Assembly (NCBI GenBank): GCA_031407765.1
Contig: JANOIR010000077.1
Location: 219 to 64,218, forward strand
DNA length: 64,000 nucleotides
Source: Vicinamibacteraceae bacterium
GTDB lineage: Bacteria; Acidobacteriota; Vicinamibacteria; Vicinamibacterales; Vicinamibacteraceae
Direction: 5' to 3'
Shown: in pieces, positions 45,101 through 62,911 of the stretch
Layout of the letters: each line of letters opens with the position of its first letter
Position numbering within the stretch: the stretch's first letter is position 1
Position numbers and translations under genes: made by a program
Notes under the pieces: generated by a model
What the model was told of the DNA's origin: nothing
Seen by the model: the letters and a program-made list of their open reading frames with translations, nothing else
Databases searched by the model: none

Positions 45101-48100
45101 GACTACCTGACGCTCGGCCTGTACGATGAATCCGGCAGCCTGGTCGCGCGGATGAATCCGTTCCTGACCCCGGGCTACCTCGACCTCGGCAGCAAGGCCA
45201 ACAACTACTTCACGGTCGATTCGGGCGGCAACTACGTCCTCAACCAGGCGGTGGCCGACCCGCAGCTCTATTACGAGTTCACCGATCCGGACAAGAACTA
45301 CCAGATCCGGGCCGAGTCGTACCGCCACTACCTGGCCGCCAGCCCGTACAGCGACGGCTACCTCGGCGTGGTCTCCAGCGGCCAGTCCTACGACCTGGTG
45401 GTGGCGATCCAGAACCACGAAGTCAACCGCGAGGCGATTTCGCTGGTCGGCAAGACGATGACCTTCATGGACGGCACCGGCAAGGGCCAGAGCGCGAACG
45501 TGATCGCCTACGACCCGCTGACCAGCACCTACACGCTCGACAAGCAGCTCACCAACCCGTCGACCCTGCTCGTGGGTTCGGGCTTGACGACGGGCATGTT
45601 CTCGTCGTACCAGATCGATTACTCGATGCAGAGCGAGTTCCCGGGCTACTCGTCGAACTTCGACACCTTCGAAGTGGTGCTCACCGGCCGGCCGGGCGAC
45701 GTCACCACGGTCGACGTGGTGCCGCAGGTGACCGGCAGCTACAACTCCGACAAGGCCTTCTCGGCGCGTGACGGCTACGGCCTGCACGAGGCGGTGCAGG
45801 TCGACGTCGCGACGCCGCAGGCGAAGATCAAGCTCGCGTACGTCGACGCTGCGGGCAACGCGGTCACGAGCGTCGCAGGCGTCGAGACCTGGGTGCTGAC
45901 CCTGGGCGGTACGACGCTGGCGGAATCGACCTTCAGCTCCGCGACCGTCGCCGGGACCACGTTGACGGCCATCGCGACGGACCTGATCACGCAGGTCAAC
46001 CTGGCGAACATCGGCTACGTCGCGAGCAACGTTGGCGAGAACATCCTCCTGACCCGCTACAACGGCGACCGCCAGTCCTTCGTCGCCAAGCTCGCGGTGA
46101 AGGTCGGCAGCGGTTCGAGCGCGGTGCCCGATACCAAGGGCGCGATCGGGATCACCCAGTCGGACGCCAACAAGCAGCTGACCATCAGCCTCACCGGCGA
46201 GCCGCGGGTCGGCGAAGACTGGAAGGTCACGATCACGTCCGGCGCGTTCACCAGGACCTACACGCAGGCGGTCGGATTCGGCGACGAACTCGCCGACATC
46301 GCCGAGCACCTGAGCGCGCAGATCAAGGCCGAGAGCAGCGTCAACTTCCGCACGCTGCTCAAAGGGCGCGAGATCGTCGTCACGCGCGTGGACGGCGGCG
46401 TGATCACGTCCGCCAGCGCCGCGATCACCCCGGACAGCCGCGGCAGCGCCGCGGTCACCGCACAGCTCGTGTTCTCGAACGTGAACGGGGCCCTGAACGC
46501 CTGGAACATCCCCCAGAAAGTCGTCGTCACCGCGGTGGACGACCAGGTGATCGAGGGCGGCGACCTGAAGGTGTTCCCGGCGATGGACGAGCACGTGAAC
46601 CGCATCCGCGGGCCGCTCGTGATCCAGGGCGGCATCATCCACACCGAGGACAACGCCCTGCGCAATCCGTTCATGCTGCCGGGCGAGAACAACAACCCGC
46701 TGATCGAAGGCAGCACCACCGCCGACGCGGCGTCCGCCGGTAACACCCTCACCGACATCAACGCGGTGCACTACGACCCGCTGCGCGGCCAGATGCCGGG
46801 CTTCGACCCGCGCATGGACACCAGCACCACGGGCTTCCTCTACGACATGACCGTGGTGACCGGCGTCGGCACCGGCATCACGCAGCACGTCGAGGCGCTC
46901 ACCGGCACCGGCGTCGCGATCAAGTCCGAGACGCTCGGCACGGCGTTCTCCGCCTCGATCAGCGTCACCAGAAGCGATGGCGTCACTGTCGGCACGGGCT
47001 CCGGCACCATCAGCGGCACGGGTACTTCGGCCACCACGTACTCGAATGCGACGCTGGTGCTCGAAGGCGCGGTGTTCAAGGGCCAGGAATGGAGCATCCG
47101 GCTCAACGGCAGCACCGGCCCGACCTACACCTACATTGCGGGCTCGCGCCCCGGCGGTGGGCCGACCGACGATGTGCTCACACTGGACGTGGTGGCGCAA
47201 CGCCTCGCCCAGCTCATCAATGCGACCCCGCCGGCCGGCGTCGCGGCGACTACCGGCACCTCCATGCTCAAGCTGACCAGCACCACCGGCGTGAGTATCG
47301 ACGTGCTGAAGGGGCGCGCGCGCCTGAGCGATACGATCGCCACCGGCGCCACAAACTGGGAGCTGGCCCAGATCCAGCTGGCCGGTTCCCCTATCGACGG
47401 CTCCGTTACCGCGGGCGATCGCTGGAAGATTACGCTCGGTACCGCGGACTTCGTCTACATCGTTTCGGCCGGCGACACCCTCGCCAAGGTCGCGCGCGGG
47501 CTCGCCGACCAGGTCGACCAGGCGCTCGCCTACCACGCCGACGTCAAGCTCGACACGGTGCGGTTCACCTCGACGTGGGGCGCGGCGCTGACGAGCGGCA
47601 CCGGCTACTTCATCAGCCCGGTCAACAGCAACATCCTGGCGGTCGAAGCCGACCAGGTGGACGTGCTCAACGTCTACAACCGCAACAGCGTCTCGAACGA
47701 CGTCGGCACGCTGACCGAGAACCGGCTCTACGGCTTGGGCATGGGCCCGGACAGCGTGGTCGGCGGCAAGGCGATGAACGGCGGCATCACTTACGCCGGC
47801 CTGGAGCAGGTCAATCTCAGGCTGGGCTCGGGCAACGACCACATCGTCGTCGAGTCGACCCATCAGGGCGCCACGACGATCAGCGGCGCGGCGGGCGACG
47901 ATTGGATCGAAGTGAAGAAGGTGTCGGGCCACACCACGCTCGACCTTGGCACCAGCGTGACCACCGGCAACCGGGTGGACGTGGGCAGCGCCGACAATCG
48001 CGTCGACCAGGTCACGGGCCTCCTCGACATCATCGGCGGCGTCCAGGTGGTCAACCAGGCGCCGACCACGGTGCAGCTCGACACGGTCAACGTCAACGAC

Positions 48101-51100
48101 TCGGGCGACACCAACGCCAACACCGGCACTCTCACCGCCACGACGCTGACCGGGCTCGACATGGCCTCGGTCGAGGAAATCCAGCTGGTGCGCGTGCAGG
48201 CCAAGTCGGGCACCTTCCGCCTCACTTACACGACGCCGAACGCGACGCCGCTGCCGGTTCCGGTGACCTTCACGCAGGCCGATTTCGCGACCGCGGGCGT
48301 CGCCGCGGGCAAGGTGCAGGCCGCGCTGCGCAGCCTGTACGACAACACGACCGACATTCTCGTATTCGAAGACAGCCGCGAGGCGCTGGACGACGGCGTG
48401 CACGCCGTGACCTACAGGGTGGTGTTCACCGGCAATCTCGCCGGCCGCAACATGGAAGAGATCATCTGGGGCGAGACGCGCGCGGCGGCGGCGGCGACGC
48501 TGCAGGCCTTCGCGGGCGAGTCGATCGACGTCGGCGTCACGACGCTGCGCCAGGGCACCCCGACGCCCGCGATCGGCAACGTGCAGACGGTGACCGTCAA
48601 CGGCGCCGGCAGCTTCACGCTTACGATCAATGTTCCGGTTCCTGGCGGCACCCCGCTGCAGACCACGCAGACCACTGCTTCGATCCTGGTCGGCGCCTCG
48701 GCGGACGAGGTGCTCAAGATCCTCGACCTTATCCTCAACCCGAACGGCTCTGTCCTCGATCCGCTGAACGATCGCAACGACAACTCGAAGCCATACACGA
48801 ACAACGTCGCCGTCACGAAGGTCGGCAACGTCTACACGATCGCATTCCAGGGCGAGCATCGCGCCAAGGCGATCGTCGCCACCACCGGCAGCGTCGAAGT
48901 CGCCACGCGCACCAGCGGCATCAACTACTACGGCCTCAATACCCTCAATGTGACGCTCGGCTCGGGCGCGGATATCTTCAACGTCCAGGGCACGAGCGCG
49001 ATCACCAACCTGAAGACCGCCGGCGGCAACGACCAGGTCTTCGTCTCCTCGAGCGCCAATGTGCAGACCGACAGCGTGGTGACGCTGCGCAGCGGCGATC
49101 CGGCGGTCCTGGGATACAGCCTGGCCGAAGCGGCCGTGTCGGTCGTCATCGAAGTCAGGAACTCGAGCGGCGCGGTCGTGAAGTCCTTCACCCTTGGCCA
49201 GACGGCGGCGGGCGCCTATTCGCAGGCCTGGGACGGAACCGACACCCTGGGGCAAGCGGTAGCCGCAGGCACCTACACCTACTCGGTGACTGGCGTGCGC
49301 TCGACTGGCGCGCTGACGCAGGCCTCCGGCGACACGCCCGCGCTGGCCTTCAGCCTGGCAGAGGCGGCGGATTCGGTCAGCGTCGTCGTGAAGGATGCGA
49401 CCGGAGCCGTGGTCAAGACCATCGCTCTGGGCGTTACTGCCATAGGCGCGCACGCGCCGGTATGGGACGGCACGAATGCGGCGGGGGTGCTGGCGCCCTC
49501 GGGCCGATACACCTACACGGTGACCGCTACGCGCGCCAACGCGACGACCTTCGCCGGAATTGTCTCGACGTTCGCCGGCGTCGCAACGACGGCCAACGTA
49601 TCCGGGTTCCTGGCCGGCAACACCTTCGCCTTCCGGGGCGAAGGGGGCCATGCGCCGGCGCTGACGTATGAACTGTCGGCTGGCGTTGCCCAGGCCCTGG
49701 TCAAAATCTACGACACGACCGGAACGCTGGTGCGCACCATGACGGTGAATTCGCCGGCTGCCGGAACGCACACCACCACCTGGGACGGCAAAAACGAGAC
49801 GAACCAGCGCCTTGCGGCCGGCACTTACACCTACCAGGTGACCAATGCGCTTGGCGCGATCATCGGCACCACCGCCATGAACGGCACGCTGGACGCGGTG
49901 AACGGCCTGCTTAATATTGACTCGGGCAGCGGCACGAACGCGCTGATGGTGAGCGACGCGGGCTCGCGCGCGCCCAACACGGCGACCCTGAGCAACAGCC
50001 AGATCCTCGGCCTTGCCTCGGCCAACATCAATTACGTGGCTACCGCGAGCGCGCGCAACCTCGCCGGCACCGTTGTCGACACGCTCGGCGCCACGGGAAC
50101 CTTCGCCGGCGGCATCACGGTGTGGAGCGGCTACGGCGTCGACAACGTGACGGTCGCCAGCACCCGCCTTGAGACCGACGCGACGAAGCGGACGATCACG
50201 ACCCTGAACACGGGGCTGGGCGGCGATACCGTCGCCGTGAGGCTGGACGCCGTTGCCGGCTTGCCGGGCGACGGGATCGCGGACGGATTCTTCGCGCTGA
50301 ACACGCAGGGGCCGTTCGACCACGATTTCCTCGTCGGCCCCGCGCTCGGCGCCGACGACGACAAGGTCGACGCCAGCCTGTCGTCGCTGCCGCTCGTCAT
50401 CTTCGGCGGCCAGGGCAAGGATGAGATCGTCGGCGGCAGCGGCAACGACATCATCTTCGGCGACCGCGGCCGCGTGGAGTACACCGATTCCAGCGGCGCG
50501 GTGGTGCAGGTGCTCGGCTGGGGCGGCCTGGGCGACAGGACCGACGGCCTCGTTCACCTGGGCGGCGTCGCTCGCTCGGTGAACCTCGAGGTGGGCGCGA
50601 ACGACTACATCGATGGCGGCGAAGGGCGCAACGTCGTGATCGGCGGCAAGAATGGCGGCGGCGCGCTGCTCCATGCGGCGGCCGGCAGCTACGACGGTGA
50701 CTACCTGTGGGTCGGATCCGGCAACGACGTCGTGCTGGGCGACAACGGCCGGGTAGCGTTCAACGCGGCCGGCGACGTAACGCGCCTGGAGACCACGGAC
50801 GTCGATGCCTCGACTGGCGGCAACGACACGATCCGCGCCGGCGAGGGGGACAACCGGATTCTCGGCGGGATGGGCGTCGACACGATCACAGTGGGCAGCG
50901 GGAAAGACGCCATTCTGGGCGACAACGGCTTCATGCAGATGGACGTCAACGGCGGCAATTTCGAGACAATCGCCACGAACTCGCTCGCCTCGACGGGCGG
51001 CAGCGCCACCAGCCTGGGCGACGCGGACATCATCACGGGCCAGGACGGCAAGAAGATCGTGCTGGGCGGCGACGGTGGCGACACGATCAAGCTGGGCGAT

Positions 51101-54100
51101 GGCACGGCCGGGGTGAACGAGCACATCGTGCTGGGCGACAACGGGGTGGTGACCTTCGTGCCGCTGAGCGCGGGCGTGGCTGGCGGCGCGGGCAAGGTCC
51201 TGAGCTACGAGACAACCGACACGGTGGCGGGCACGGGCGGCATCGACCGGATCACGCTGGGCGATGGCACGGCGACGATCCTGGGCGGGATGCACGGCGA
51301 CATCATCATCACCGACACCGGCACGACGGTCGGTGGCGACGGGGCGGACACGATCCTGGGCGACAACGGCCTGGTGCAGATGGACATCCAGGGCGGCAAC
51401 TACGCGCTGATCGAGACCAAGTCGCTGGCCTCGACCGATCCGACGAGCCTGATCACGAGCCTGGGCGGGGACGACCAGATCACCACGGGCGATGGCAAGA
51501 AGATCGTGCTGGGCGGCGACGGGTTCGACCAGGTGACGATGGGCGCGGGCGATCACATCGTGCTGGGCGACAACGGCATCGTGACGTTCGTGCCGCTCAG
51601 CGCGGGCGTGGCCGGTGGCGCGGGCAACGCGCAGAAGTTCGAGACGACGGACACGCTGGACATCAGCTCGGTCGGCGGCACGGGCGATCGGGACAACATC
51701 ACGATCACGGGCAACGGCAACAACACGATCCTGGGCGGCATGGGGGTCGACACGATCATCCTGCAGAGCAACGTCGCGGGCGGCGCGGACGTGGTGCTGG
51801 GCGACAACGGCGTGGTGGAGATGGACGCGAAGGGCGTGAACTTCGCGCAGGTCACGACCAAGTCGTTGACCTCGGCCGGTGGCGGGACGGCGGACCAGGG
51901 CGCGGGGGATATCATCACGGCGCTCGACGGCAAGAAGATCGTGCTGGGCGGCGATGGCGGGGACACGATCAGGCTGGGCGATGGCACGGCGGGGACGAAC
52001 GAGCACATCGTGCTGGGCGACAACGGCTCGGTGACGTTCGTGCCGATGCTCGATGGGCTGGGCAACCCGAGCGTCGGCGCGGGCAAGGCGCTGAGCTTCA
52101 AGACCACGGATACGGTGCAGGCGACCGGCGGCATTGACCGCATCACGGTGGGCGACGGTACGGCGACGATCCTGGGCGGGATGCACGGGGACTTCATCAC
52201 CATCGATACGGGCACGGCGCCGGGCGCAGACGGGGCCGACACCATCCTTGGCGACAACGGCCTCGTGCAGATGGACACCCAGGGCGGCAACTACGCCCAG
52301 ATCACGACCTACTCCCTGGACTCGGCGGGTGGTGGCGTGGATGAGCTGGGCGGCGCCGACCAGATCGTGACCGGCGACGGCGCGAAGACCATCCTCGCTG
52401 GCGACGGCGGTGACACAGTCACCATGGGCGAGGGCACTCATACCGTTCTGGGCGACAACGGCAGCATCGGCTACGTCGCCCTGGGCCAGACCGGCGCCGG
52501 GAACATCCTGACGATCGAGACCGCGGATACGCTTGCGGCCACCGGCGGCAACGACCAGATCAACTCCGCCAATGGCACCAACGTGATCCTCGCCGGCATG
52601 GGGGCCGACACGGTCACCACCGCCGACGGCAGCGACATGATCCTCGGCGACAACGGCAGCGTGCAGATGGACGCCGCCGGCCAGGTGTTCCGCCAAGTGG
52701 ACAGCACGGAGACGCTGCAGGGCACCGGCGACGCGATCACCGCTGGCAACGGCGCGAAGACCGTCGTGGCCGGTTTCGGCGACGACACGGTCGATGTCGG
52801 CACCGGCACGCACACGCTGCTCGGCGACAACGGCAGCCTCAGCTACGGCCCGACCGGCATCCTTTCGTACGTCACGACCACCGAGCCAACCCGGGGCGGC
52901 GATGACGCGATCGAAGCCGCCGGCGGCGATACGCTGGTCATCGCGGGCCTGGGAGACGACACCGTCACCACGGGCGCGGGCGTGGACGTGGTGGTGGGCG
53001 ACGACGGCCGGATGTCCTTCGACGCGGCCGGGCGCCCCGCGATGGTGGAATCCACCCAGCCCGGCATCGGCGGCACGGACACCATCCATTCGGGCGAAGG
53101 CAACAATGTCCTGATCGGCGGCTTCGGGCCCGACAGCCTGGTTTCGGGCGGCGGAGTCGACATGCTCATGGGCGACGGCGGCCGCGTCACCTACGCCGGC
53201 GGGGCGCTCTACCTGGTGGAGAGCATCGATTCCTTCATCGGTTCGAGCGACTTCCTCGATGGCGGCGCAGGCCAGAACGTCCTGATCGCCGGCGACGGCG
53301 ACGACGTGATGGTTGGCGACCTCACCAACGACATCCTCGCGGGCGATTACGCCGCCGTGACCTTTGACGCTTCCGGCCACGTGACGTCGGTGATGCGCTT
53401 CGGCGGCCTGGGCGACCTGATCGCGCAGGTGCAGGACAGCCTGTTCACCTACACGCGTCCCGACGACGCGGCAGCGGCGGACCCGCAGGTGTATCGCGGC
53501 AATCTCATCCTGATCGGCGACGCGGCGAGCGAGCTCCGGCGCCTGTACGTGCTTGGCGACTACCTGTCTCTGCCGGTCTTCTCCGGGTTCGATTTCGCGG
53601 CGGCCCAGGCCCAGCACCACAGCAGCTCGAGCGTGGCCTCCCAGCCGGCCTCCTCGGCGACCCCCGGCAGCGAGTCCGGAGCCCCCGCGAGCGAGCCGGG
53701 TGCCGCCCCTGCCGGCGAGGAAGGGCAGGGCGAGCAAGGCGGGCAAGGTCCGGCCGAAGGCGCGCAAGAGGGCACGCCGTCCGCGGCAACGTCGAATGAA
53801 TTCGGCGGCGACAGCACCGGCCTGCAGATACTGGAACTGCCGCAGGTCGAAGGGAACGCGGCCGGCAGCTTTACGCTCGGCACCACTGGCCAGTCGACGC
53901 GCGACCAGCCGACGCGAGACCAAGCGGATCGGCAGCAACTGGCGCTCGCCGGCCTGGTCGGCGCGCAGGCCTGGTATGGCCGCCGGCAGGAGAGTTCCGC
54001 GCCGCGCATGACGGGCGCCACGACGGCGACGTCCGCGGGCAACAGGGGCGCCTGGATCCGGCCCGCCGGAGAAGCCGCGGCCGCGGGCGAGGTCATGCTC

Positions 54101-54280: not shown

Positions 54281-54305
54281 GTCGCCGGCGGTACCCGGCG
54301 GCACA

Positions 54306-54713: not shown

Positions 54714-56558
54714 ATGCCGGGTTCCGCCCTCGAGGAAACCGCCTCCGCGCTGAGTGCCGGGGACGCGCTCTGGCGGCAGCATGCCGCGGCGCAGTCCTCG
54801 GATGCCTACCTCAGGAGCTGGCTCGCGCTGCAGTGCTCCATGGTCGCGGGCGCCGCGCGCGGCGTGCTGCTGCTCGGCGCCCCCGATGCGGGGCCCTATG
54901 CGCCGGCGGCATTCTGGCCGGCGGCGCAGAACGCGAGCCCGCTGCTGGCCGATATCTCCAGCCGCACGCTGGAGGCTCGCCGCGGCATCGCGATGCAGGG
55001 CGCTCCGTACGCGGCGGTGAGCTGTCCCCTGATCTTCGAAGGGCAGTTGCACGGCCTGGTGGCCGTCGAACTCGCGCCGCAGCCGGACGCCGCGCTGCAG
55101 GAGGTGGTGCGGCAGCTGCAGTGGGGCCTGTATGCGGTGGAATGCGCGTTGCGCGGCGAGCAAGCGCGCCACGAGCACGGGACGCGCGAGCGCCTCATGG
55201 CCACCCTCGACCTGGTGGCTTCCGCGCTCGCGGAGGACGGCTTCCAGGCCTCCGCCCAGGCGCTCGCGACCGACCTCGCGGTACGCCTGGATTGCGACCG
55301 GGTCAGCATCGGCTTCGAGCGCGACGGCCATGCCCGCGTCGTGGCCGTGTCGCACAGCGCCGAGTTCGGCGAGCGCATGAACCTGATCCGGGCGATCGGC
55401 ACCGCCATGGACGAGTCCCTGGACCAGAAATCCATCATCGTGCTGCCGCAGGGCGACGGCGAGGCGCTGGTGACGCGCGACCACGAGGCGCTGGCGCGGC
55501 TCTTCGGCAGCGGCAGCGTGCTCACGGTGCCTTTTTCCGTGGGAGAGACCACCAAGGGGGCGTTCAATTTCGAGCGCCCGGCGGGGCGCCCGTTCGAGGC
55601 CGACACGGTCGAGCTGACGCAGGCGGTGGTCGCGCTGGGCAGCCGCATCCTCGAGGAAAAGCGGCTGAACGACCGGCTGCTGGTGAGCCGCGTCAAGGAT
55701 ATCGCGCGCGAGCAACTGGAGAAATTCATCGGCCCGCGCCATTTCGGCCGCAAGCTTGCCGCGGCGCTCGTCATGCTTGCCGCGATCTTCTTCAGCTTCG
55801 CGACCGGCGAGCACCGCGTCGGGGCGAGCGCCGCGCTCGAGGGGGCGGTGCGCCGCGTCCTGGTGGCGCCCTTCGACGGCTACGTCGCGAGCGCGACGCA
55901 CCGCGCGGGCGACATCGTTCCGGCCGGAACCGTGCTGGCCAGCCTCGACCAGCGCGACCTGAAGCTCGAGTACTACAAGTGGGCGAGCCAGCAGAGCCAG
56001 TATGCGCGCCAGTACCAGGAAGCCATGGCCAAGCACGACCGTGCCCAGGCCAACATCCTGCTTGCGCAGGTGCAGCAGGCAGAGGCGCAGATGAACCTAC
56101 TTGCCGAGCACCTCGGCAGGGCGCAGATCACCGCGCCCTTCGAAGGTCTGGTGGTGAGCGGCGACCTGCACCAGTCGCTGGGCGCCTCGGTGAAGCGCGG
56201 CCAGACGCTGTTCGAGATTTCGCCCCTGAACGCCTTTCGCGTGGTGCTCGAGGTGGACGAGACGGACATCGACAGCGTGGCGACCGGGCAGAAGGGAGCC
56301 CTGCAGCTCAGTTCGATCCCCGGCGAAGTCTTTCCATTCACCGTCAGCCAGCTGACGCCGATCGTCGCATCGCGCGAGGGACGCAGCTATTTCCGCGTCG
56401 AGGCGCTGCTCGAGAGGGCGCCGGAGGGCGCCGCGGGGCGGCTGCGCCCCGGCATGGAGGGCGTCGCCAAGATCGAGGCCGGGCGCCGCAAGCTGATCTG
56501 GATCGGCACCCACAAGATGCTCGACTGGGCGCGGCTCACCCTTTGGTCCTGGCTCTAG
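54714..56558 (+). CDS. Tandem GAF-like domains + single TM + HlyD-type membrane fusion (periplasmic adaptor) protein
   Basis: 614 aa. The N-terminal ~330 aa contains two GAF-like units (LIFEGQLHGLVAVEL; RVSIGFERDGHARVVAVSHSAEF...VPFSVGETTKGAFNFER). TM helix LAAALVMLAAIFFSFA. Then lipoyl/coiled-coil/beta-barrel adaptor motifs (VLVAPFDGYVASATHRAGDIVPAGTVLASLD; ITAPFEGLVVSGD...VKRGQTLFEI; FRVVLEVDETDI). Confidence 0.8.
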   Translation: MPGSALEETASALSAGDALWRQHAAAQSSDAYLRSWLALQCSMVAGAARGVLLLGAPDAGPYAPAAFWPAAQNASPLLADISSRTLEARRGIAMQGAPYAAVSCPLIFEGQLHGLVAVELAPQPDAALQEVVRQLQWGLYAVECALRGEQARHEHGTRERLMATLDLVASALAEDGFQASAQALATDLAVRLDCDRVSIGFERDGHARVVAVSHSAEFGERMNLIRAIGTAMDESLDQKSIIVLPQGDGEALVTRDHEALARLFGSGSVLTVPFSVGETTKGAFNFERPAGRPFEADTVELTQAVVALGSRILEEKRLNDRLLVSRVKDIAREQLEKFIGPRHFGRKLAAALVMLAAIFFSFATGEHRVGASAALEGAVRRVLVAPFDGYVASATHRAGDIVPAGTVLASLDQRDLKLEYYKWASQQSQYARQYQEAMAKHDRAQANILLAQVQQAEAQMNLLAEHLGRAQITAPFEGLVVSGDLHQSLGASVKRGQTLFEISPLNAFRVVLEVDETDIDSVATGQKGALQLSSIPGEVFPFTVSQLTPIVASREGRSYFRVEALLERAPEGAAGRLRPGMEGVAKIEAGRRKLIWIGTHKMLDWARLTLWSWL

Positions 56559-56593: not shown

Positions 56594-58744
56594 ATGAGCA
56601 GCCCGTCGCTGTTCAGCTCCTCCTGGTACCGGGTCGCGGGCCTTCGCCCTCGACTGCGCAGCCACGCGCAGGTCCACCGCCACGTGTACCGGGGCGCGGT
56701 GTGGTACGTGATGCAGAATCACACCACCGGCAAGTTTCACCGCTTTACCCCGATCGCCAACCTGATCATTGGCCTGATGGACGGCAAGCGCACGGTCCAG
56801 GAGATCTGGGACCTTGCCTGCGTGCGCCTCGGCGACGAGGTGCCCTCCCAGGACGAAGCCATCAAGCTGCTTGCGGACCTGCACGCCGCGGACGTCCTGC
56901 AGGGTGACGCGCCCCCCGACCTGAACGAACTGCAGCAGCGCCGGCGCAAGCACGTGCGCACGCGCTGGAAGCAGTATCTGGGCAATCCGCTGTCGATGCG
57001 TTTCCCGCTGTTCGATCCGGACTGGATGCTGCAGCGGCTGTTGCCGCTGCTCGCGCCGCTGTTCGGTCGGGTGGGCGCGCTGCTGTGGCTCGGGGTCGTC
57101 GGCTGCGCCCTTGTCCTGATCGCGATGCACTGGAGAGAACTCTCGAGCGACGTGGTCGACCGCGTATTCTCGGTGGAGAACCTGCTGCTCATCTGGATAG
57201 TTTTCCCGCTCATCAAGCTGCTGCACGAACTCGGACACGCGCTCGCGACCAAGGCCATCGGCGGTGAAGTGCATGAGATGGGCGTCATGCTGCTGGTGCT
57301 GATACCCATCCCGTACGTCGACGCCTCCGCCGCGACCGCGTTCCGCGACCGGCGCAGCCGCGCGCTGGTCGGTGCGGCCGGCATGATCGTGGAGCTTTTC
57401 ATCGCCGCCCTCGCGGTGTTCGCCTGGGTGCACCTCGAGCCTGGCATGGCCCGGGCGATCGCCTACGACGTGATCCTGGTCGCGGGCGTGTCGACGCTGC
57501 TGTTCAACGCCAATCCGCTGCTGCGCTACGACGGCTACTACATTCTCGCCGACAGCCTGGAGATCCCGAACCTCGGACAGCGCTCCAACGACTACCTGGG
57601 TTACCTGGTGAACCGGTACCTCTTCGGCGTCGAAGGCGGCACCTCGCCGATCGCCGCGCCGGGCGAGCGCGGCTGGTTCGTCGGTTACGCGATCGGCTCG
57701 TTCATCTATCGCATGTTCATGATGGTTTCGATCGCGGTGCTGGTGGCCACGCAGTTCTTCGTGCTGGGCGTGCTACTGGCCATCTGGGCCTGTGTCAGCA
57801 TGCTGCTGCTGCCCGTGGCGAAGAAGATCCATTACCTCTTCTACAGCCCGCGGCTCGCCAGCCACCGGCAGCGCGCGGTGCTGGTCAGCACCGGCGGCGT
57901 CGGCCTGCTTGTCGCTGCGCTGCTGTGGCTGCCCGCGCCCTCGTCCACGAGGGCCGAGGGCGTGATCTGGGCGCCGGAGCAGGCGCAGGTGCGCGCCACC
58001 GTCGACGGGTTCGTGACCAAGGTTCTCGCGAAGCCGGATCAGGCGGTGCGCGAGGGCGATGTCCTGATCGAAAGCCAGGATCCGGAGCTGTCCGCGCGCA
58101 CCGGCGTGCTGCAGGCGCAGCTCGCGGAGCTCGACGCGCGCTACTCGGCGGCGATCACCGGCAACCGGGTGCAGGCCGGGGTCATCAACGAGCAGCGAAC
58201 TCACGTGATGGAGGCGCTCGGCCTCGCGCAGCGACGCCAGGAGGACTTGCTGGTGCGCAGCCCCGGCAACGGACTATTCGTGATCCAGGACCCGCAGAAC
58301 CTGCCCGGCCGCTATGCCCAGCGCGGAGAGGTGCTCGCCTACGTCACCGATCGGGCAGCCCGTTCCGTGCGCGTGGTGGTGTCCCAGTCCGAGGGCGCGC
58401 TCGTCAGCAAGCGCACCGAGCGCGTGGAGATCCGCCCGGCCGACCGCGTGAGCCGGCCGATCCAGGCGCGCATCGAGCGCGAAGTGCCCGCGGCGACGGA
58501 CGAATTGCCCAGCATGACGCTCAGCCTGCAGGGCGGCGGCAAGATCGGGCTCGATCCGGCCCGGCCGGGCGACGGCAGATCGCTGGAGAAGCTGTTCGTG
58601 CTGGACCTCGAGCTGCCGCAGGGCGAGCAGACGAACTACCTCGGCGGACGCGTCTACGTGCGCTTCGAGCATGAGCCCGAGCCGCTTGCCAGCCAGTGGT
58701 ACCGCGACCTGCGGCGCGCTTTCCTGAAGAAGTTCAATGTCTGA
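56594..58744 (+). CDS. PqqD-like (RRE-like) N-terminal domain + M50/site-2-protease-type membrane metalloprotease + C-terminal HlyD-type adaptor domain
   Basis: 716 aa. HELGH at 57224-57238 within a hydrophobic segment. Second S2P motif NANPLLRYDGYY at 57506-57541. Multiple TM helices. N-terminal FHRFTPIANLIIGLMDGKRTVQEIWDLACVRLGDEVPSQDEAIKLLADLHAADVL resembles PqqD/RiPP-recognition elements. C-terminal VRATVDGFVTKVLAKPDQAVREGDVLIESQDPEL plus coiled coil resembles the HlyD lipoyl/hairpin region. Confidence 0.8.
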   Translation: MSSPSLFSSSWYRVAGLRPRLRSHAQVHRHVYRGAVWYVMQNHTTGKFHRFTPIANLIIGLMDGKRTVQEIWDLACVRLGDEVPSQDEAIKLLADLHAADVLQGDAPPDLNELQQRRRKHVRTRWKQYLGNPLSMRFPLFDPDWMLQRLLPLLAPLFGRVGALLWLGVVGCALVLIAMHWRELSSDVVDRVFSVENLLLIWIVFPLIKLLHELGHALATKAIGGEVHEMGVMLLVLIPIPYVDASAATAFRDRRSRALVGAAGMIVELFIAALAVFAWVHLEPGMARAIAYDVILVAGVSTLLFNANPLLRYDGYYILADSLEIPNLGQRSNDYLGYLVNRYLFGVEGGTSPIAAPGERGWFVGYAIGSFIYRMFMMVSIAVLVATQFFVLGVLLAIWACVSMLLLPVAKKIHYLFYSPRLASHRQRAVLVSTGGVGLLVAALLWLPAPSSTRAEGVIWAPEQAQVRATVDGFVTKVLAKPDQAVREGDVLIESQDPELSARTGVLQAQLAELDARYSAAITGNRVQAGVINEQRTHVMEALGLAQRRQEDLLVRSPGNGLFVIQDPQNLPGRYAQRGEVLAYVTDRAARSVRVVVSQSEGALVSKRTERVEIRPADRVSRPIQARIEREVPAATDELPSMTLSLQGGGKIGLDPARPGDGRSLEKLFVLDLELPQGEQTNYLGGRVYVRFEHEPEPLASQWYRDLRRAFLKKFNV

Positions 58745-60731
58745 CGTACTCGCCGCGCCGCGCGCCTTCGACGAGCTCTACGCCGAGCGGCGCGAGCTGG
58801 CCGGCGAGCAATGGCTGGACCGCGCCGGCACGGCCGTCGCCGGACGCCTGACGCGCGCGATGCGCGCGCGTCCAGCGCGCGTCGATTTCATCGTCGGCGC
58901 GGTGGCCGCGGTCGAGGCGCGCTACCGCGGGCTGGACGTCGCCCGGCTCGCCGAAGAGGCGCGCGAGCTCAAGCGCCGGCTGCGGCGGGACGGTTTGCGC
59001 GATGCGCTGGTGGCGGAGGCCTTCGCGCTGGTGCGCGAAGCCTCGGACCGCGTTCTGGGCATGCGCCACTTCGACGTGCAGCTGAAGGGCGCCTGGATCA
59101 TGCTGAACGGCATGGTCGCCGAGATGCAGACCGGCGAGGGCAAGACGCTGACCGCCACGCTGGCCGCCTGCACGGCGGCGCTGGCGGGTATCCCGGTGCA
59201 CGTGGTCACCGTCAACGACTATCTCGTGGCGCGGGACTGCGAGACGCTGCGGCCGGTCTACGAGGCGCTCGGCATCACGGTGGCGGCGGCGACCGAGGAA
59301 ATGACGCCGCAGGAGCGCCGGGCGTCATACGCCTGCGACGTCGCGTATTGCACCAATAAGACCCTGGTGTTCGATTACCTGCGCGACCGGATACTGCTGG
59401 CGACGGGCGCGAGCACGCTGCACCTGCGGCTGGAGAAGATCTACGGGCCGGATTCCCGCAGCCGCCGCCTGCACCTGCGCGGCCTGCATTTCGCGATCGT
59501 CGACGAGGCCGACAGCGTGCTGATCGACGAGGCCCGCACCCCGCTCATCATTTCCGCGGAAGTGCCGCCGGGCGACGAGGCGGCAGTGGCTGCGCAGGCC
59601 CTGGCGATCGCCCGGGGCCTGGCGCTCGGCGCGGATTTCGTCATCGTCATCGCCGAGCGCAGGGTCGCGCTGACCGAGACGGGCCACGCAAAGGTGGTCG
59701 AACTGTGCAAGGAACTGGGCGGCGTCTGGGCGGGCTCGCTCAGGCGCGAGGAACTGGTCACTCAGGCGCTGAGCGCGCTGCACCTGTTCCTGCGCGACGA
59801 CCACTACGTGGTGCGCGAGGGCAAGATCCAGGTCGTCGACGAGCACACCGGGCGGGTGATGGCCGACCGCTCCTGGGGCCAGGGACTGCACCAGTTGATC
59901 GAGGCGAAGGAGGGCTGCGAGATCACGCCGCGCAAGGAAACGCTCGCCAAGATCAGCTACCAGCGGTTTTTCCGGCGCTACCTTCACCTGTCCGGGATGA
60001 CCGGTACCGGTTCCGAGGTGGCCGGGGAACTCGGGTCGGTCTACGGCCTGCCGGTGGTGCGCGTCCCGACGCACCGGCCCGGCCGGCGCCTGCGCGAGGT
60101 GGATCGCATCTTCGAGACGGAAGAAGAGAAATGGAATCGCATCGCGGAACGGGTCGCCGAGCTGCACGCCAAGGGCGTGCCGATCCTGCTGGGCACGCGT
60201 TCGGTGGCGTCCTCCGAGATCGCGAGCCGGCTGCTCGAGCAGCGCGGCCTCGCGCACCGCGTGCTGAACGCCAAGCAGGACGAGGAAGAGGCGCAGATCG
60301 TCGAGCGCGCGGGCGAGGCGGGCGCGATCACGATCGCGACCAACATGGCGGGCCGCGGCACCGACATCAAGCTCGCGCCAGGCGTCGCCGAACTGGGCGG
60401 GCTGCACGTGATTCTGTCGGAGCGGCACGAGGCCGGGCGCATCGATCGCCAGCTGGAAGGGCGCTGTTCCCGCCAGGGGGATCCGGGGCACTTCGAGGCC
60501 ATCATTTCCCTCGAGGACCCGGTGCTCGAGCCCTACCGCGGGGGCCTGCCGGAACTGCTGATGCGCCGGCTCGCCGCGCTCAGGCCCGGCGCGGCCCAGG
60601 AAGTGAAGCGGCGCTGGATCCGACTCGCCCAGCTGCGCACCGAACGCGCGCAGTCGAAGGTGCGCCGCAATCTGCTGAAGACCGACAAGCAGACTGGCGA
60701 TATCCTCTCGTTCTCCGGCAGGCCGGAATGA
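58737..60731 (+). CDS. SecA-family ATPase paralogue, C-terminally shortened (664 aa)
   Basis: SecA motor signatures: MRHFDVQL, Walker A MQTGEGKTL (59124-59150), VVTVNDYLA/V, IVDEADSVLIDEARTPLIIS (about 59495), YQRFFRRY..LSGMTGTG, TNMAGRGTDIKL (about 60338-60374), GGLHVILSERHEAGRIDRQLEGRCSRQGDPG. Only about 100 aa follow the last motor motif, whereas several hundred follow in housekeeping SecA. The start overlaps the upstream stop (ATGTCTGA). Confidence 0.85.
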   Translation: MSDVLAAPRAFDELYAERRELAGEQWLDRAGTAVAGRLTRAMRARPARVDFIVGAVAAVEARYRGLDVARLAEEARELKRRLRRDGLRDALVAEAFALVREASDRVLGMRHFDVQLKGAWIMLNGMVAEMQTGEGKTLTATLAACTAALAGIPVHVVTVNDYLVARDCETLRPVYEALGITVAAATEEMTPQERRASYACDVAYCTNKTLVFDYLRDRILLATGASTLHLRLEKIYGPDSRSRRLHLRGLHFAIVDEADSVLIDEARTPLIISAEVPPGDEAAVAAQALAIARGLALGADFVIVIAERRVALTETGHAKVVELCKELGGVWAGSLRREELVTQALSALHLFLRDDHYVVREGKIQVVDEHTGRVMADRSWGQGLHQLIEAKEGCEITPRKETLAKISYQRFFRRYLHLSGMTGTGSEVAGELGSVYGLPVVRVPTHRPGRRLREVDRIFETEEEKWNRIAERVAELHAKGVPILLGTRSVASSEIASRLLEQRGLAHRVLNAKQDEEEAQIVERAGEAGAITIATNMAGRGTDIKLAPGVAELGGLHVILSERHEAGRIDRQLEGRCSRQGDPGHFEAIISLEDPVLEPYRGGLPELLMRRLAALRPGAAQEVKRRWIRLAQLRTERAQSKVRRNLLKTDKQTGDILSFSGRPE

Positions 60732-60747: not shown

Positions 60748-61566
60748 ATGAACCGTGGGACCGCCCTTTTCCTGCTTGCGTCGCTTGCAGCAGCCGTTTC
60801 TCCTGCGAACGCCCAGGCCCCGCAGCGTCCCGCTGCGCTCAAACCGGAGGCGGTCCCGTTCACCCCGGTGCGTCCGCCGATGGCCAGCGGCAACGCCGGC
60901 AAGCAATTCGGCGATGACATGGATTGCCTGGTGGAGCCGCACATCGTCACAAGCGTCGGAAGCCCCGTGGAAGGCACACTCGCGGAAGTGCTCGTGGACC
61001 GGGGCTCGCTCGTCTCCAGGGGACAGGTCGTCGCCCGCTTGAACTCGAAAGTGGAGGAGGCCACAGTCAACCTGAAGGCGGCGCAGGAGGATTTCGGCAA
61101 GCGCAAGGTGGACCGCAACGAGGAGCTTTACAAGAAGCAGCTCATCTCCGCCAACGAGAAGGACGAACTGGAGACGCAGACGCGCATCGCGGGCCTGGAG
61201 CTGCAGCAGCAAAGGCAGGTGCTGGAGCAGCGCACCATCCGCAGCCCTTTGAACGGCGTCGTGGTCGAGCGCATGCTCAGCCCGGGCGAGCGCGTCGGCG
61301 ACGGCAAGATCGTGAAGATCGCCCAGATCGACCCGCTGAACGTGGAGGTCGTCGCGCCGGTGGAGATGTTCGGCCGGGTGAAGCCCGGCATGGCGGGCGA
61401 AGTCCGCTTCCAGCCGCTGCTGCAGGGGACCTTCAAGGCGACCGTGACGGTCGTCGACCGTGTCGTGGACGCGGCCAGCGGCACCTTTGGCGTACGCCTG
61501 CGGCTGCCCAATCCGAACAGCACGGTGCCGGCCGGCATCAAGTGCAGCGTCCGATTCCTCAAGTAG
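60748..61566 (+). CDS. Periplasmic adaptor (membrane fusion protein, RND/MFP family) with a cleavable signal peptide
   Basis: 272 aa. AGGAG RBS at 60737-60741. Signal peptide MNRGTALFLLASLAAAVSPANA/QAP. Lipoyl-like VGSPVEGTLAEVLVDRGSLVSRGQVVARLNS. Coiled-coil hairpin. IRSPLNGVVVERMLSPGERV. Beta-barrel segment VEVVAPVEMFGRVKPGMAGEVRF...ASGTFGVRLRLPN. Confidence 0.8.
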   Translation: MNRGTALFLLASLAAAVSPANAQAPQRPAALKPEAVPFTPVRPPMASGNAGKQFGDDMDCLVEPHIVTSVGSPVEGTLAEVLVDRGSLVSRGQVVARLNSKVEEATVNLKAAQEDFGKRKVDRNEELYKKQLISANEKDELETQTRIAGLELQQQRQVLEQRTIRSPLNGVVVERMLSPGERVGDGKIVKIAQIDPLNVEVVAPVEMFGRVKPGMAGEVRFQPLLQGTFKATVTVVDRVVDAASGTFGVRLRLPNPNSTVPAGIKCSVRFLK

Positions 61567-61637: not shown

Positions 61638-62339
61638 ATGGCGCGCGGGTCGCTGCTCGCGGAGCGTGTGCTGTTCGGCGTGCCGCGCGCGGGCGCGGAT
61701 CCGGCGAGTCTCGCAGGCGTTTGCCGAGCGCTCGCGATGCCTGAGCCGTACCTTGCCGCCTTCGAGGGAGGCCTCGCGGAGGCCGACACCGTGCACTTCG
61801 GCTTCGAAGCGGGAGAGGGCCTGCTGTACAAGGTTTACCTGGAGTACGCGCGCCGATACCACGGCGCGCCTCGGGGCGGGCCGCCGGTCGTGCTGCACCA
61901 CGCCTACAAGTGGGACGCGTCGGATCCGCGCCGCCGTGCGGTCGCGCGCTACGAATGCTTTCCAGGCCTGCCGGCAGCCGGCATCCGTGCGCGGCTGGCT
62001 GCGCTATATGGCCATCGGGGCGCGCCCTCGCAGGCCGCCGCGTGCGCCGCGCTCGACCTTGCCGGCCGGCGCAGCGTCAAGCCGCTGATGTACCTGGAGG
62101 TCGCGGAAGAGGGCAATCCCCGCGCATCGTTCGACCTCAACCTGCATCCGGCCGACCTCCGCGTGGCCGACCTGGAGGCCGGGTTGCGGGAACTGCAGCA
62201 GCGCTATGCCATCGCCGAGGACGCGTTCGAGCCGGTGTGGGAGAACGTCCGTGGGCAGGCGCTCGGCCACGTCGCCGGCGGCACGAGCCGCGGGGGCGGC
62301 GATTTCTTCACCGTCTACCACGGCGTCGGGGCGCCTTGA
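61638..62339 (+). CDS. Hypothetical protein (233 aa from ATG 61638; in-frame CTG at 61584 also possible)
   Basis: This is the downstream part of track ORF 60924..62339, which overlaps the adaptor gene in another frame before 61566. Coding-type GC3 bias. No recognised family. Ends ...GGTSRGGGDFFTVYHGVGAP. Confidence 0.55.
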   Translation: MARGSLLAERVLFGVPRAGADPASLAGVCRALAMPEPYLAAFEGGLAEADTVHFGFEAGEGLLYKVYLEYARRYHGAPRGGPPVVLHHAYKWDASDPRRRAVARYECFPGLPAAGIRARLAALYGHRGAPSQAAACAALDLAGRRSVKPLMYLEVAEEGNPRASFDLNLHPADLRVADLEAGLRELQQRYAIAEDAFEPVWENVRGQALGHVAGGTSRGGGDFFTVYHGVGAP

Positions 62340-62911
62340 ATCCCTTCGTTGTGGCGGTCGCCGGGCCGATCGGCGCGGGCAAGTCGACGCTCGTGCGTGG
62401 TCTCGCCGCGCGCCTGCCCCAGGCCGCGGCAATCTACATGGACGACTACGAGCAGTTCACCAGACAGCCGCTCGACGAGGTGCGCCGCTGGCTGCGCGAA
62501 GGGGCCGATCCCAACCGGCTGCCCATCCCCGGCCTCGCCGAGAAGCTGGCGGCCCTGAAGAGCGGGCCGGACCGCTTCCTCGTCTTCGAGACGCAGTTCG
62601 GCCGCACGCACGCCGCGACTGCCTGCCATATCGACTTCCTCGTCTGGATCGACCTGCCGCTGGAGTTCGCGCATGCGCGCAAGCTCGCGCAAATGGGGGC
62701 TGCGGCCGACGTCCGAGATCCGGCCGGTGCTGCGGATTTCCTCGCCTGGATCACCGGCTACGAGGCGAGCTACGCCGACGTGGTTGAGCCTGCGCTGCGC
62801 ATTCAGCGCGAGACCGTGCGCGCCGGCGCGGATCTCGTGGTCGATGGCGTGCGCAAGCCCGCGGTGCTCCTCTCGCAGATCGAATCCGCCGTGCTCGCCG
62901 GGCGTCGCTAG
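62336..62911 (+). CDS. P-loop NTPase / nucleoside-kinase-like protein (uridine kinase-like fold)
   Basis: This is the downstream part of track ORF 61910..62911. TTG 62336 (TTGA overlap with the upstream stop) or GTG 62351 as start. Walker A VAVAGPIGAGKSTLV directly at the N-terminus. IYMDDY and a DFLVWIDLPLE (Walker-B-like) segment, as in small P-loop kinases. Confidence 0.65.
   Translation: MNPFVVAVAGPIGAGKSTLVRGLAARLPQAAAIYMDDYEQFTRQPLDEVRRWLREGADPNRLPIPGLAEKLAALKSGPDRFLVFETQFGRTHAATACHIDFLVWIDLPLEFAHARKLAQMGAAADVRDPAGAADFLAWITGYEASYADVVEPALRIQRETVRAGADLVVDGVRKPAVLLSQIESAVLAGRR

Follow-up and report, generated by a model that had tools for sequence, protein, structure and literature searches.

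The window, the whole stretch of 64,000 nucleotides that we analysed, contains an open reading frame (ORF) for a 716-amino acid (aa) protein, together with a giant ORF and a group of smaller genes on the same strand:

6895-7752, + strand: SapC-family protein (Pfam SapC, E 5e-72)
7749-9104, + strand: TolC-family outer-membrane channel (TIGR01844, 315 bits, cut-off 225; start codon uncertain)
9122-54280, + strand: giant ORF, 15,052 aa from the first start codon, with RTX and FlgD-Ig repeats; presumed cargo
9224-9289, + strand: LEPR-XLL N-terminal motif of the giant protein, aa 35-56, containing MFEALEQRFMLSAE (NF012209, 26.6 bits, cut-off 17)
9857-10288, + strand: DUF4347 domain of the giant protein, aa 246-389, which holds C324
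54362-54697, + strand: DUF3467 protein, 111 aa, a conserved small accessory protein (Pfam E 4e-24)
54714-56558, + strand: GAF-HlyD protein, 614 aa, with a cytoplasmic GAF region, a membrane helix (aa 344-366) and a periplasmic adaptor
56594-58744, + strand: the 716-aa protein, an RRE, an M50/site-2-protease (S2P) membrane core and an HlyD-type adaptor
58737-60731, + strand: truncated SecA-like ATPase, 664 aa, with NBD1, a preprotein cross-linking domain and NBD2
60748-61566, + strand: short periplasmic HlyD/RND_mfp-type adaptor, 272 aa, with a signal peptide

The start codon of the 716-aa ORF is backed by the alignment of homologue N termini, and its stop overlaps the start of the SecA-like ORF by 8 nt. 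All three adaptors of the cassette have short alpha-hairpins. Genes for a radical SAM protein, an O-methyltransferase and a 2OG oxygenase lie upstream in the window.

Along the 716-aa protein we distinguished the following segments:

56648-56899, + strand: PqqD/RRE-like winged-helix domain, aa ~19-102, three strands and then three helices
57020-57844, + strand: M50/S2P membrane core, aa ~143-417, six helices and a re-entrant hairpin
57224-57238, + strand: HELGH zinc-binding/catalytic motif, aa 211-215, at the end of helix 194-222
57269-57325, + strand: predicted beta-hairpin after the HExxH helix, aa 226-244, with conserved GGEVHEMG...PIPYVDAS
57506-57541, + strand: NANPLLRYDGYY motif, aa 305-316, including NANPLLRYDG (aa 305-314)
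57848-57931, + strand: seventh membrane helix, aa ~419-446, which anchors the HlyD-type module at its N-terminal end
57932-58741, + strand: periplasmic adaptor, with lipoyl halves, a short alpha-hairpin (aa 497-550), a beta-barrel and a conserved C-terminal helix

The initial annotation had read this ORF as a head-to-tail fusion of a PqqD/RRE-like domain, an M50 core and an HlyD-type adaptor, and sequence profiles and structure prediction confirmed all three parts. Domain matches of the single sequence were weak, yet they agreed with each other. Pfam PqqD (PF05402) aligned with aa 38-101 (E 5e-4; 20.7 bits, cut-off 23.4), precomputed PF05402 matches are present in many homologues, and a profile built from 32 homologues and compared with the PDB matched PqqD (3g2b) over aa 17-102 (E 0.004). 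The Pfam model Peptidase_M50 (PF02163) aligned with aa 202-304 (E 5e-4), and despite its sub-threshold score (20 bits, cut-off 27.2) the combined evidence for M50/S2P homology is convincing. The positions first given for HELGH and NANPLLRYDGYY proved exact and both motifs end hydrophobic helices; as in M50 proteases, HExxH lies in a membrane helix and NxxPxxxxDG ends another. Among 32 full-length homologues of 37-83% identity, H211, E212, H215, N305, N307, P308 and D313 never vary, which shows that the observation is not due to chance. D313 is presumably the third zinc ligand, and by comparison with S2Ps we read the hairpin at aa 226-244 as an edge strand that re-enters the membrane.

At the C-terminal end, HlyD_3 (PF13437) scored above its cut-off (23.1 versus 22.2 bits) and HlyD_D23 matched too. 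The 32-homologue profile matched the solved adaptors MacA/MexA (E 3e-7), HlyD from the HlyBD complex (8dck, E 2.5e-6) and EmrA. Profiles, Foldseek and the predicted model all showed the arrangement of membrane fusion proteins (MFPs), in which lipoyl halves flank an alpha-hairpin and a beta-barrel follows. Alignments with TIGR01843 and 8dck start at aa 422-424.

AlphaFold2 models were confident for the full-length protein (pLDDT 84.8) and for aa 1-450 (pLDDT 85.1, pTM 0.75). Foldseek searches with the full-length model returned adaptors only (MexA/AcrA/MacA/EmrA, E about 1e-11), and the separate model of aa 1-450 was needed before S2P and RRE matches appeared. For this shorter model the S2P of M. 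jannaschii (3b4r) ranked first (E 0.02, probability 1.00), followed by the leader-bound RRE proteins TbiB1 (5v1v) and lasso B1 (6jx3), with TM-scores on the target of 0.74-0.77 and an rmsd of about 3 Å. The E-values of the S2P and RRE matches were weak (0.02-0.4), and their probabilities and TM-scores were high. The modelled RRE consists of strands at aa 25-32, 35-42 and 47-51 and helices at aa 53-60, 68-82 and 86-98; model and Foldseek both point to the winged-helix fold of the RRE/PqqD family.

The predicted topology comprises seven membrane helices and the re-entrant beta-hairpin. Across the 32 homologues, the proposed cytoplasmic loops carry on average about 2.0, 5.1 and 4.0 lysines plus arginines, versus 1.0, 0 and 0 for the periplasmic loops, and a predicted cytoplasmic loop rich in lysine and arginine (net +3.3) precedes the helix at aa 419-446. 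This prediction places the adaptor in the periplasm behind an N-terminal membrane anchor, as in MFPs, with the RRE and the zinc site turned towards the cytoplasm or the inner leaflet, so that the domains are topologically compatible. An HExxH site and an adaptor on incompatible sides of the membrane had been named as an outcome that would speak against the initial reading; model and residue counts instead favour it.

At E<=1e-30 the family of the 716-aa protein numbers 4,515 cluster representatives. It is very common in Proteobacteria, both environmental and host-associated ones; the top 150 members are nearly all full length, at about 715 aa. At 80 loci we found a fixed cassette in the order [DUF3467]-GAF-HlyD-716-aa homologue-truncated SecA-short HlyD, in hosts from the Alpha-, Beta- and Gammaproteobacteria, Desulfobacterota, Nitrospirota and Myxococcota. 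The GAF-HlyD gene lies immediately upstream of the 716-aa homologue in 68 of 70 loci and the SecA-like gene downstream of it in 65 of 68; the short HlyD gene was seen in 51/62 loci and the DUF3467 gene, by tblastn, in 25/67. SapC, TolC and giant genes often adjoin the cassette. SapC is in or beside it at 12 loci and also at L081, and 39 of the 59 loci with enough flank have a neighbouring stop-free frame of 1500 aa or more. RefSeq independently annotates a Pseudosulfitobacter locus as LEPR-XLL domain-containing protein, HlyD, site-2 protease, SapC, SecA-like protein and adaptor, in that order. Cultured bacteria that carry the system include Achromobacter piechaudii NBRC 102461, Marinobacterium mangrovicola DSM 27697 and Azotobacter beijerinckii DSM 378.

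A distant variant (26% identity) is carried on E. coli IncF plasmids in 24 of 5,426 complete genomes. Its PF02163 match is above the cut-off (34.7 bits versus 27.2), and it is adjoined by TolC, two HlyD-like genes and a gene for a DUF4347 giant whose N terminus reads RRLRPRAHRFALESRQLFDGA. A TolC-family gene, the outer-membrane factor, is thus present in the operon of the window, at several related loci and in the E. coli variant. At three close loci (L055, L062 and L069) and in the E. coli variant the cassette has no SecA-like gene, so this motor is not universal.

The strongest single match of the 716-aa protein was to the NCBIfam model NF041824 (daptide biosynthesis intramembrane metalloprotease), which aligned over aa 19-405 (model positions 1-365 of 379, E 1.1e-46). 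Its score missed the equivalog cut-off (159.7 bits versus 300), and judged on sequence the protein is a homologue of this family rather than a member; the window holds no daptide genes. The daptide RRE-S2P fusion co-occurs with precursors that bear an N-terminal ELExMEAP motif and has been assigned leader removal (bioRxiv 10.1101/2023.03.08.531785). The 716-aa protein might accordingly cut the leader from a nearby small modified peptide and aid its export, with the giant gene merely a neighbour. The closest named families, daptide and YydH/LiaK, are indeed RiPP leader peptidases, and of the radical SAM, O-methyltransferase and 2OG oxygenase genes upstream in the window the first two recur near the cassette elsewhere. 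They do so in only 2 of the 80 loci (L040 and L074), however, and the neighbours across these loci are giant genes, SecA-like ATPase genes and HlyD paralogues rather than short precursor ORFs or modification enzymes. With the daptide model score also far under its cut-off (160 versus 300), we regard a role in RiPP maturation as very improbable.

Database records name members of the family 'efflux RND transporter periplasmic adaptor subunit' or 'site-2 protease family protein', which would make the 716-aa protein an ordinary efflux-pump adaptor or a signalling protease. These names vary from record to record within one protein family and therefore reflect automatic annotation. The cassette, moreover, has no RND, MFS or ABC partner gene and no sigma or anti-sigma gene, and we give this reading hardly any credence. 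A hidden ABC exporter was also considered and rejected: a motif scan of the window and the 80 loci found no gene of the type used in type 1 secretion systems (T1SS), and the ABC-type ORFs seen were small nucleotide-binding ones only, in 5/80 loci.

What the cassette does have beside it is the giant gene. Its product carries RTX repeats near the C terminus and the LEPR-XLL motif near the N terminus. The LEPR motif occurs at the N terminus of neighbouring large ORFs at 13 loci as well as in the window, that is, wherever the motif scan had the N terminus of the neighbour in view. Its pattern is a basic stretch followed by phi-E-x-L-E-P-R-x-L-L-S-A-D, and between it and DUF4347 lie about 60-190 aa of low-complexity spacer. 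LEPR-XLL and ELExMEAP have an L-E-(P) core in common. From gene context and homology we propose that the LEPR-XLL motif is a leader, which the RRE would bind and the M50 site would cleave. Linkage in cis is not strict: DUF4347 giants occur also with no cassette nearby, for example in Azospirillum and Dolichospermum, and this counts against the proposal.

The initial annotation had offered two substrates, the N terminus of the giant protein and the DUF3467 protein. The first is well supported by context; the second resembles a conserved, folded accessory protein more than it does a cargo. A role of the DUF3467 protein as a SecB-like chaperone is not supported and is no more than a lead: a PDB profile search gave nothing significant (best E 0.28), and hhalign against E. 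coli SecB gave a probability of 0.3%. The only overlap of the two sequences was IILSPFAAKRL against NILFPYARECI.

The DUF4347 domain has an invariant His/Cys pair, in SHG and YGC motifs, and C324, which lies in this domain, is the sole cysteine among the 15,052 residues of the giant protein, so DUF4347 could itself be a processing protease. The maturation cut would then be made by the cargo, and the M50 core would serve mainly as a structural platform or as a quality-control peptidase for stalled chains and leftover leaders. No membrane channel component besides the M50 core is evident in the cassette, and the M50 helices may therefore be structural. Set against this, the full catalytic set is invariant across deep divergence, the retention of a dedicated RRE is easier to reconcile with a specific substrate than with general clearance, and DUF4347 does not detectably resemble any peptidase family; in a permissive Pfam scan it matched no family besides its own. 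We consider such a division of labour quite unlikely, although less so than a role in RiPP maturation.

The SecA-like ATPase aligns with SecA and SecA2 structures at E 1e-135 and retains Walker A (aa 133) and DEAD (aa 256) motifs. It ends in the first scaffold helix, at a position equivalent to residue ~599 of the 841 of B. subtilis SecA, and thus has no helical wing domain, two-helix finger or C-terminal tail. The initial annotation had not connected the fusion with the truncated ATPase, the two further HlyD-like proteins or the absence of an ABC exporter.

Because a domain fusion and a conserved gene set lie together beside genes for giant surface proteins, the gene for the 716-aa protein is probably part of an undescribed route of giant-protein export. 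The reading that we favour, and hold to be probable, is that giant LEPR-XLL/DUF4347 surface proteins are exported by an apparatus of their own, which depends on TolC and has no ABC transporter, and that the 716-aa protein is its signature subunit in the inner membrane. The RRE would dock the N-terminal leader of the cargo. Where present, the SecA-like motor, with its preprotein clamp and no two-helix finger, would thread the unfolded chain at the expense of ATP. The M50 site would cut off the leader at the membrane, and the three HlyD-type proteins would form a periplasmic conduit to TolC. Export would be coupled to processing, with the logic of C39-peptidase ABC exporters (CvaAB-TolC) but different parts. 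The sub-threshold Pfam scores, the loci with no SecA-like gene, the short alpha-hairpins of all three adaptors and the lack of an evident channel component other than the M50 core speak against this reading. The initial annotation had suggested leader-processing export of this kind, and homology to the daptide leader peptidase and the TolC gene of the same operon lend that suggestion support.

The same parts could be used to retain cargo rather than to release it at once. An RRE-bound LEPR-XLL leader would tether the exported adhesin through the TolC conduit until a signal-gated M50 cut freed it, and the sensor for that signal would perhaps be the GAF domain in the HlyD protein encoded next to it. 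By analogy, this is the logic of LapD/LapG control of LapA, with the cut made on the cytoplasmic or membrane side. This scheme draws on the same architecture and context as processing-coupled export. In 68/70 loci the partner adaptor has a GAF sensor domain fused to it, the spacer of ~60-190 aa is often long enough for part or all of a tripartite channel, and the RTX repeats near the C terminus recall adhesins that are exported C terminus first. Homologous RRE-S2P enzymes, however, have been assigned constitutive leader removal, the 60-aa spacer of the E. coli variant seems too short for the envelope, and a SecA-like motor combined with an N-terminal signal favours N-terminal engagement when export starts. 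Retention followed by release is unlikely in our view, if the least unlikely of the alternatives.

A further step is to regard the cassette as a distinct secretion pathway that has escaped description. It would combine a TolC/MFP conduit with an inner-membrane part that is an RRE-S2P-adaptor fusion instead of an ABC, RND or MFS transporter and, in most lineages, with a SecA motor that has no SecY-inserting parts; it would be dedicated to giants whose N-terminal LEPR-XLL leader is recognized as in RiPPs and cut during export. We advance this claim tentatively, as one that could well fall either way. To our knowledge, no export route has been described for LEPR-XLL/DUF4347 proteins, which are often 5,000-15,000 residues long. 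In the open-access literature we found no published description of the gene set when searching for domain combinations including DUF3467 with SecA and PqqD with M50 and HlyD, and LEPR-XLL and DUF4347 were mentioned there in passing only. If the claim is correct, it would account for the export of a large class among the biggest bacterial proteins, bring the kinds of inner-membrane partner in TolC-based tripartite machines to four, place RiPP-type leader recognition by an RRE in the service of protein secretion and provide a case of a SecA motor that operates without SecY. The compact variant on E. coli IncF plasmids makes the reading directly testable.

Several known systems resemble the cassette in part. 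Accessory SecA2 systems (streptococcal SecA2/SecY2 and mycobacterial SecA2) likewise have a specialized SecA paralogue encoded with a very large surface protein, but the cassette has no SecY2 or Asp protein and combines its truncated SecA-like protein with HlyD/TolC parts. With type 1 secretion of giant RTX adhesins (LapA/LapBCE, MpIBP, SiiE; HlyBD-TolC) it shares a TolC channel, HlyD-family adaptors and giant cargo with Ca-binding repeats. It differs in lacking the ABC transporter that energizes a T1SS, in the N-terminal LEPR-XLL signal of the cargo and in having three adaptor paralogues with short hairpins and a SecA-like ATPase; the 716-aa protein scored only 14.3 bits against TIGR01843, the model for HlyD at the T1SS level (cut-off 208.65).

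C39 exporters (CvaB/CvaA/TolC; PCAT1) recognize and cleave a leader on the cytoplasmic side and export their cargo in one step through MFP and TolC. Leader cleavage coupled to MFP-TolC export is what we propose, by analogy, for the 716-aa protein. In it a zinc S2P with an RRE takes the place of the C39 cysteine peptidase, and the fusion partner is an adaptor instead of an ABC transporter; the cassette has no ABC transporter. The RRE-S2Ps of RiPP pathways (daptide MpaP, NF041824; YydH/LiaK, NF058609) have the same succession of an N-terminal RRE/PqqD-like domain and an M50 domain with HExxH and NxxPxxxxDG. To this plan the 716-aa protein adds a seventh helix and a 270-aa HlyD-type periplasmic domain; its family belongs to Gram-negative bacteria with TolC, and its presumed substrate is the N terminus of a protein of thousands of residues rather than a peptide of ~40 aa.

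The open reading frame at 56594–58744 (+ strand) encodes 716 residues, and the three-part fusion proposed for it in the initial annotation (a PqqD-like RiPP recognition element (RRE), an M50 or site-2 protease (S2P) core and a HlyD-type adaptor) was borne out by Pfam, NCBIfam, PDB-profile and AlphaFold2/Foldseek matches. The catalytic motifs fall in the translation exactly where they had been placed, with HELGH at residues 211–215 (57224–57238) and NANPLLRYDGYY at residues 305–316 (57506–57541). Pfam matches of the single sequence to PqqD (residues 38–101, E 5e-4), Peptidase_M50 (residues 202–304, E 5e-4), and HlyD_D23 and HlyD_3 (residues 462–628; HlyD_3 barely exceeds its cut-off) are weak, yet they are arranged in the order expected for such a fusion. 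The decisive sequence evidence is the alignment of residues 19–405 to positions 1–365 of the 379 in NCBIfam NF041824, 'daptide biosynthesis intramembrane metalloprotease' (E 1.1e-46). The score of 160 bits lies below the equivalog cut-off of 300 bits and there are no daptide genes, which rules out a daptide protease identity. A model of the YydH/LiaK RiPP protease also matched (E 2e-8), and a PDB-sequence profile search with the family returned MacA/MexA, HlyD of the HlyBD complex, EmrA and PqqD. That the protein is a RiPP exporter, as the RiPP-protease matches might suggest, seems very improbable to us.

More than 7,900 relatives were found by word-indexed search; the closest (62–85% identity, 715–716 amino acids) belong to Betaproteobacteria (Sulfuritalea and Rhodocyclaceae among them) and carry generic, mutually inconsistent database names. 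In an exhaustive HMMER search, 12,756 cluster representatives passed E ≤ 1e-3, of which 4,515 also passed E ≤ 1e-30; the best 150 matches were nearly all full length (about 715 amino acids, 37–57% identity). Judged from sequence, the fusion is ancient and stable, and not an artefact of assembly or gene calling. Databases have listed the family for a long time, with generic names; its role and the surrounding system appear new, and we give hardly any credence to the database readings of an efflux adaptor or a signalling S2P. Residues H211, E212, H215, N305, N307, P308 and D313 were invariant in an alignment of 32 family members (37–83% identity), and the zinc site is therefore under selection.

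AlphaFold2, supplied with this alignment, modelled the full-length protein at a pLDDT of 84.8 and residues 1–450 at 85.1 (pTM 0.75). Three strands and three helices (residues 25–98) and a linker helix are followed by helices 143–178 and 194–222, the latter ending in HELGH, a β-hairpin (226–244), helices 253–280 and 285–305, the latter ending in NANP, short cytoplasmic helices, and helices 358–387, 389–417 and 419–445. The C-terminal part has lipoyl, α-hairpin (497–550) and β-barrel elements and a conserved terminal helix. With the whole model, Foldseek retrieved MexA, AcrA, MacA and EmrA (E about 1e-11); with residues 1–450, the Methanocaldococcus jannaschii S2P (3b4r) ranked first (E 0.02, probability 1.00), followed by the leader-peptide-bound RRE proteins TbiB1 and lasso B1 (TM-score on the target 0.74–0.77). 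We take the hairpin to be re-entrant by its likeness to solved S2Ps, and on that reading the protein would cross the membrane seven times. Averaged over 32 homologues, the proposed cytoplasmic loops contain 2.0, 5.1 and 4.0 Lys and Arg residues and the periplasmic loops 1.0, 0 and 0; the loop preceding the last membrane helix has a net charge of +3.3. Together, the loop pattern and the seven-crossing reading put the RRE, like both catalytic motifs, on the cytoplasmic face of the membrane, and the adaptor on the periplasmic one; this predicted topology is compatible with the initial annotation and does not refute it. HlyD alignments begin at residues 422–424 and so take in the last membrane helix; the model is therefore that of an RRE–S2P (N-in, C-in) joined head to tail to a HlyD-type adaptor, which brings its own anchor running from inside to outside. 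Sequence or prediction thus gives the protein three domains, an intact catalytic site and a compatible topology.

The gene lies in a run of + strand genes; counted from the giant gene, successive gaps measure 81, 16, 35, −8 and 16 nt.

Genes of the cassette region in the window
6895–7752, +, SapC
about 7749–9104, +, TolC-family channel (TIGR01844 above cut-off)
9122–54280, +, giant ORF, 15,052 amino acids
54362–54697, +, DUF3467
54714–56558, +, GAF domain, one membrane helix and HlyD-type periplasmic part
56594–58744, +, RRE–S2P–HlyD fusion
58737–60731, +, SecA-like protein, 664 amino acids
60748–61566, +, HlyD/RND_mfp-type protein, 272 amino acids, signal peptide

No ABC transporter gene was found among the window's genes or by motif scan. 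The end of the SapC-family gene overlaps the beginning of the TolC gene, and in 12 loci a SapC-family gene is again found within the cassette or next to it; SapC reportedly takes its name from an operon for S-layer secretion in Campylobacter fetus, in which its role is not known. The DUF3467 protein shows strong conservation, with N39, N42, E48, F54, G55, R74, P79, A82–L85, Y96 and E97 invariant; its SPFAAKRL aligns with LFPYARE of SecB without statistical support (hhalign probability 0.3%), and a chaperone role is a guess. Genes for a radical SAM protein, an unknown 284-residue protein, an O-methyltransferase and an unknown 380-residue protein lie upstream of SapC (1686–6741), and the cassette is followed downstream by a gene for a P-loop kinase-like protein (61910–62911). 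Members of this set also occur near the cassette in Methylobacterium aquaticum (locus L040, 2159–7404) and in an uncultured alphaproteobacterium (locus L074, 261–6057); the set might serve cargo modification or a linked pathway. Opposite the giant gene runs an antisense open frame of 4,466 codons (40904–54304, − strand), one of several long ones, most likely by-products of high G+C repetitive coding sequence and not genes.

The SecA-like protein consists of a DEAD motor, NBD2 and the preprotein cross-linking domain, and its Walker A and DEAD motifs are intact. It aligns solely to residues 18–599 of the 841-residue Bacillus subtilis SecA; by the domain boundaries of SecA it is therefore missing the helical wing domain, the C-terminal tail and the two-helix finger that enters SecY. 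It is not a canonical SecA or SecA2. This 664-residue paralogue is reduced to motor and preprotein clamp, with an N-terminal extension of about 47 residues, a 19-residue insertion in NBD1 and a C-terminus (FSGxPE) that is the same in distant genomes.

Scanning one genome per species gave at least 562 loci. We analysed the best 80, which span Alpha-, Beta- and Gammaproteobacteria, Desulfobacterota, Nitrospirota and Myxococcota, cultured strains included; tblastn searches with proteins of the window show that they keep the gene order and strand almost everywhere. The GAF–HlyD gene was directly upstream of the fusion homologue in 68 of the 70 loci whose flank was long enough, the SecA-like gene downstream in 65 of 68, the short HlyD gene present in 51 of 62 and DUF3467 in 25 of 67, a count that is probably too low because the protein is short. 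SapC and TolC recur. Of the 59 loci that offer 5 kb of flank or more, 39 have a stop-free frame of at least 1500 residues adjoining the cassette. In the 13 loci where a motif scan located the N-terminus of a neighbouring ORF, that ORF starts with a basic stretch and then phi-E-x-L-E-P-R-x-L-(L/F)-S-A-D. An independently annotated RefSeq plasmid of Pseudosulfitobacter sp. DSM 107133 has the order LEPR-XLL gene (38.7 kb, 'LEPR-XLL domain-containing protein'), HlyD, 'site-2 protease family protein', SapC, 'prepilin peptidase' and adaptor; 'prepilin peptidase' is RefSeq's misnomer for a SecA-like orthologue (54% identical). Sequence or prediction thus shows a fixed gene partnership with adaptors, SecA-like ATPase, TolC and LEPR-XLL giants. 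Conversely, some DUF4347 giants lack any cassette within 20 kb, so service in trans is likely.

The SecA-like gene is absent from three closer loci (L055, L062 and L069), of which the last two still adjoin a LEPR-motif giant. A distant, compact variant on Escherichia coli IncF plasmids (found in 24 of 5,426 complete genomes; L082, plasmid NZ_CP081687.1, 19707–39458) has neither SecA-like nor DUF3467 gene and reads DUF4347/cadherin giant (4,459 amino acids), TolC (639 amino acids), short HlyD, HlyD and M50–HlyD, flanked by IS elements. Its 710-residue M50–HlyD protein is 26% identical to the target, retains HELGH and NASPFMRFDGYF and matches the daptide model at E 1e-50, and its giant begins MTTIKNRRLRPRAHRFALESRQLFDGA, a variant of the LEPR motif. 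The link of M50–HlyD to LEPR/DUF4347 cargo is therefore deeper than its link to the motor.

The giant protein has a LEPR-XLL domain above the NCBIfam cut-off (residues 35–56, ...RRKAMFEALEQRFMLSAE...), DUF4347 (residues 246–389), RTX repeats and FlgD-Ig domains, and no Sec-type hydrophobic signal. An RRE fused N-terminally to an intramembrane S2P is a mark of daptide clusters; the precursors there have an ELExMEAP motif conserved at the N-terminus, and leader removal is assigned to the RRE-dependent intramembrane peptidase (bioRxiv 10.1101/2023.03.08.531785). The fusion protein very probably belongs to an apparatus dedicated to exporting the neighbouring giant. The RRE would dock the LEPR-XLL leader, whose L-E-(P) core is common to the daptide motif, the SecA-like motor, where present, would feed the unfolded chain, the M50 site would cut off the leader and the three HlyD-type proteins would make the connection to TolC. 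We lean towards this mechanism as a whole; for leader cleavage by the fusion protein itself, the chances seem even. The processing-coupled export first proposed from the sequence is in this form the best current hypothesis.

The partner adaptor's GAF domain (residues 180–308, cytoplasmic, N-terminal to the membrane helix) suggests small-molecule or nucleotide sensing coupled to the export machine. The main rival uses the same parts, but there the M50 cut would be a regulated release step, sensed through the GAF domain in the manner of LapD/LapG and LapA; we think it unlikely. The 15,052-residue cargo contains exactly one cysteine, C324 (10091–10093), the invariant Cys of the motif D-x-L-x-YGC in DUF4347 (9857–10288), and an SHG motif about 40 residues N-terminal to it is also invariant (10 sequences). 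A permissive Pfam scan of DUF4347 returned no second family; the His/Cys pair recalls clan CD (caspase/CHAT-type) peptidases, and the domain may be cysteine-dependent and perhaps self-processing. Maturation by DUF4347, with the M50 core as platform or clearance enzyme, is a still less likely account than regulated release.

Our searches of open-access texts found no account of how LEPR-XLL proteins are exported, nor any paper on the fusion or its cassette; whether the whole cassette deserves the name of a new secretion pathway we put slightly below even. By definition the cassette falls outside type 1 secretion, as it has no ABC transporter and the fusion scores 14 against a TIGR01843 cut-off of 209. 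We rate the export system preferred here as a kind of leader-processing tripartite exporter, which has the peptidase-coupled, one-step logic of C39-ABC/MFP/TolC machines but differs from them in its protease, the protease's fusion partner and the energiser.
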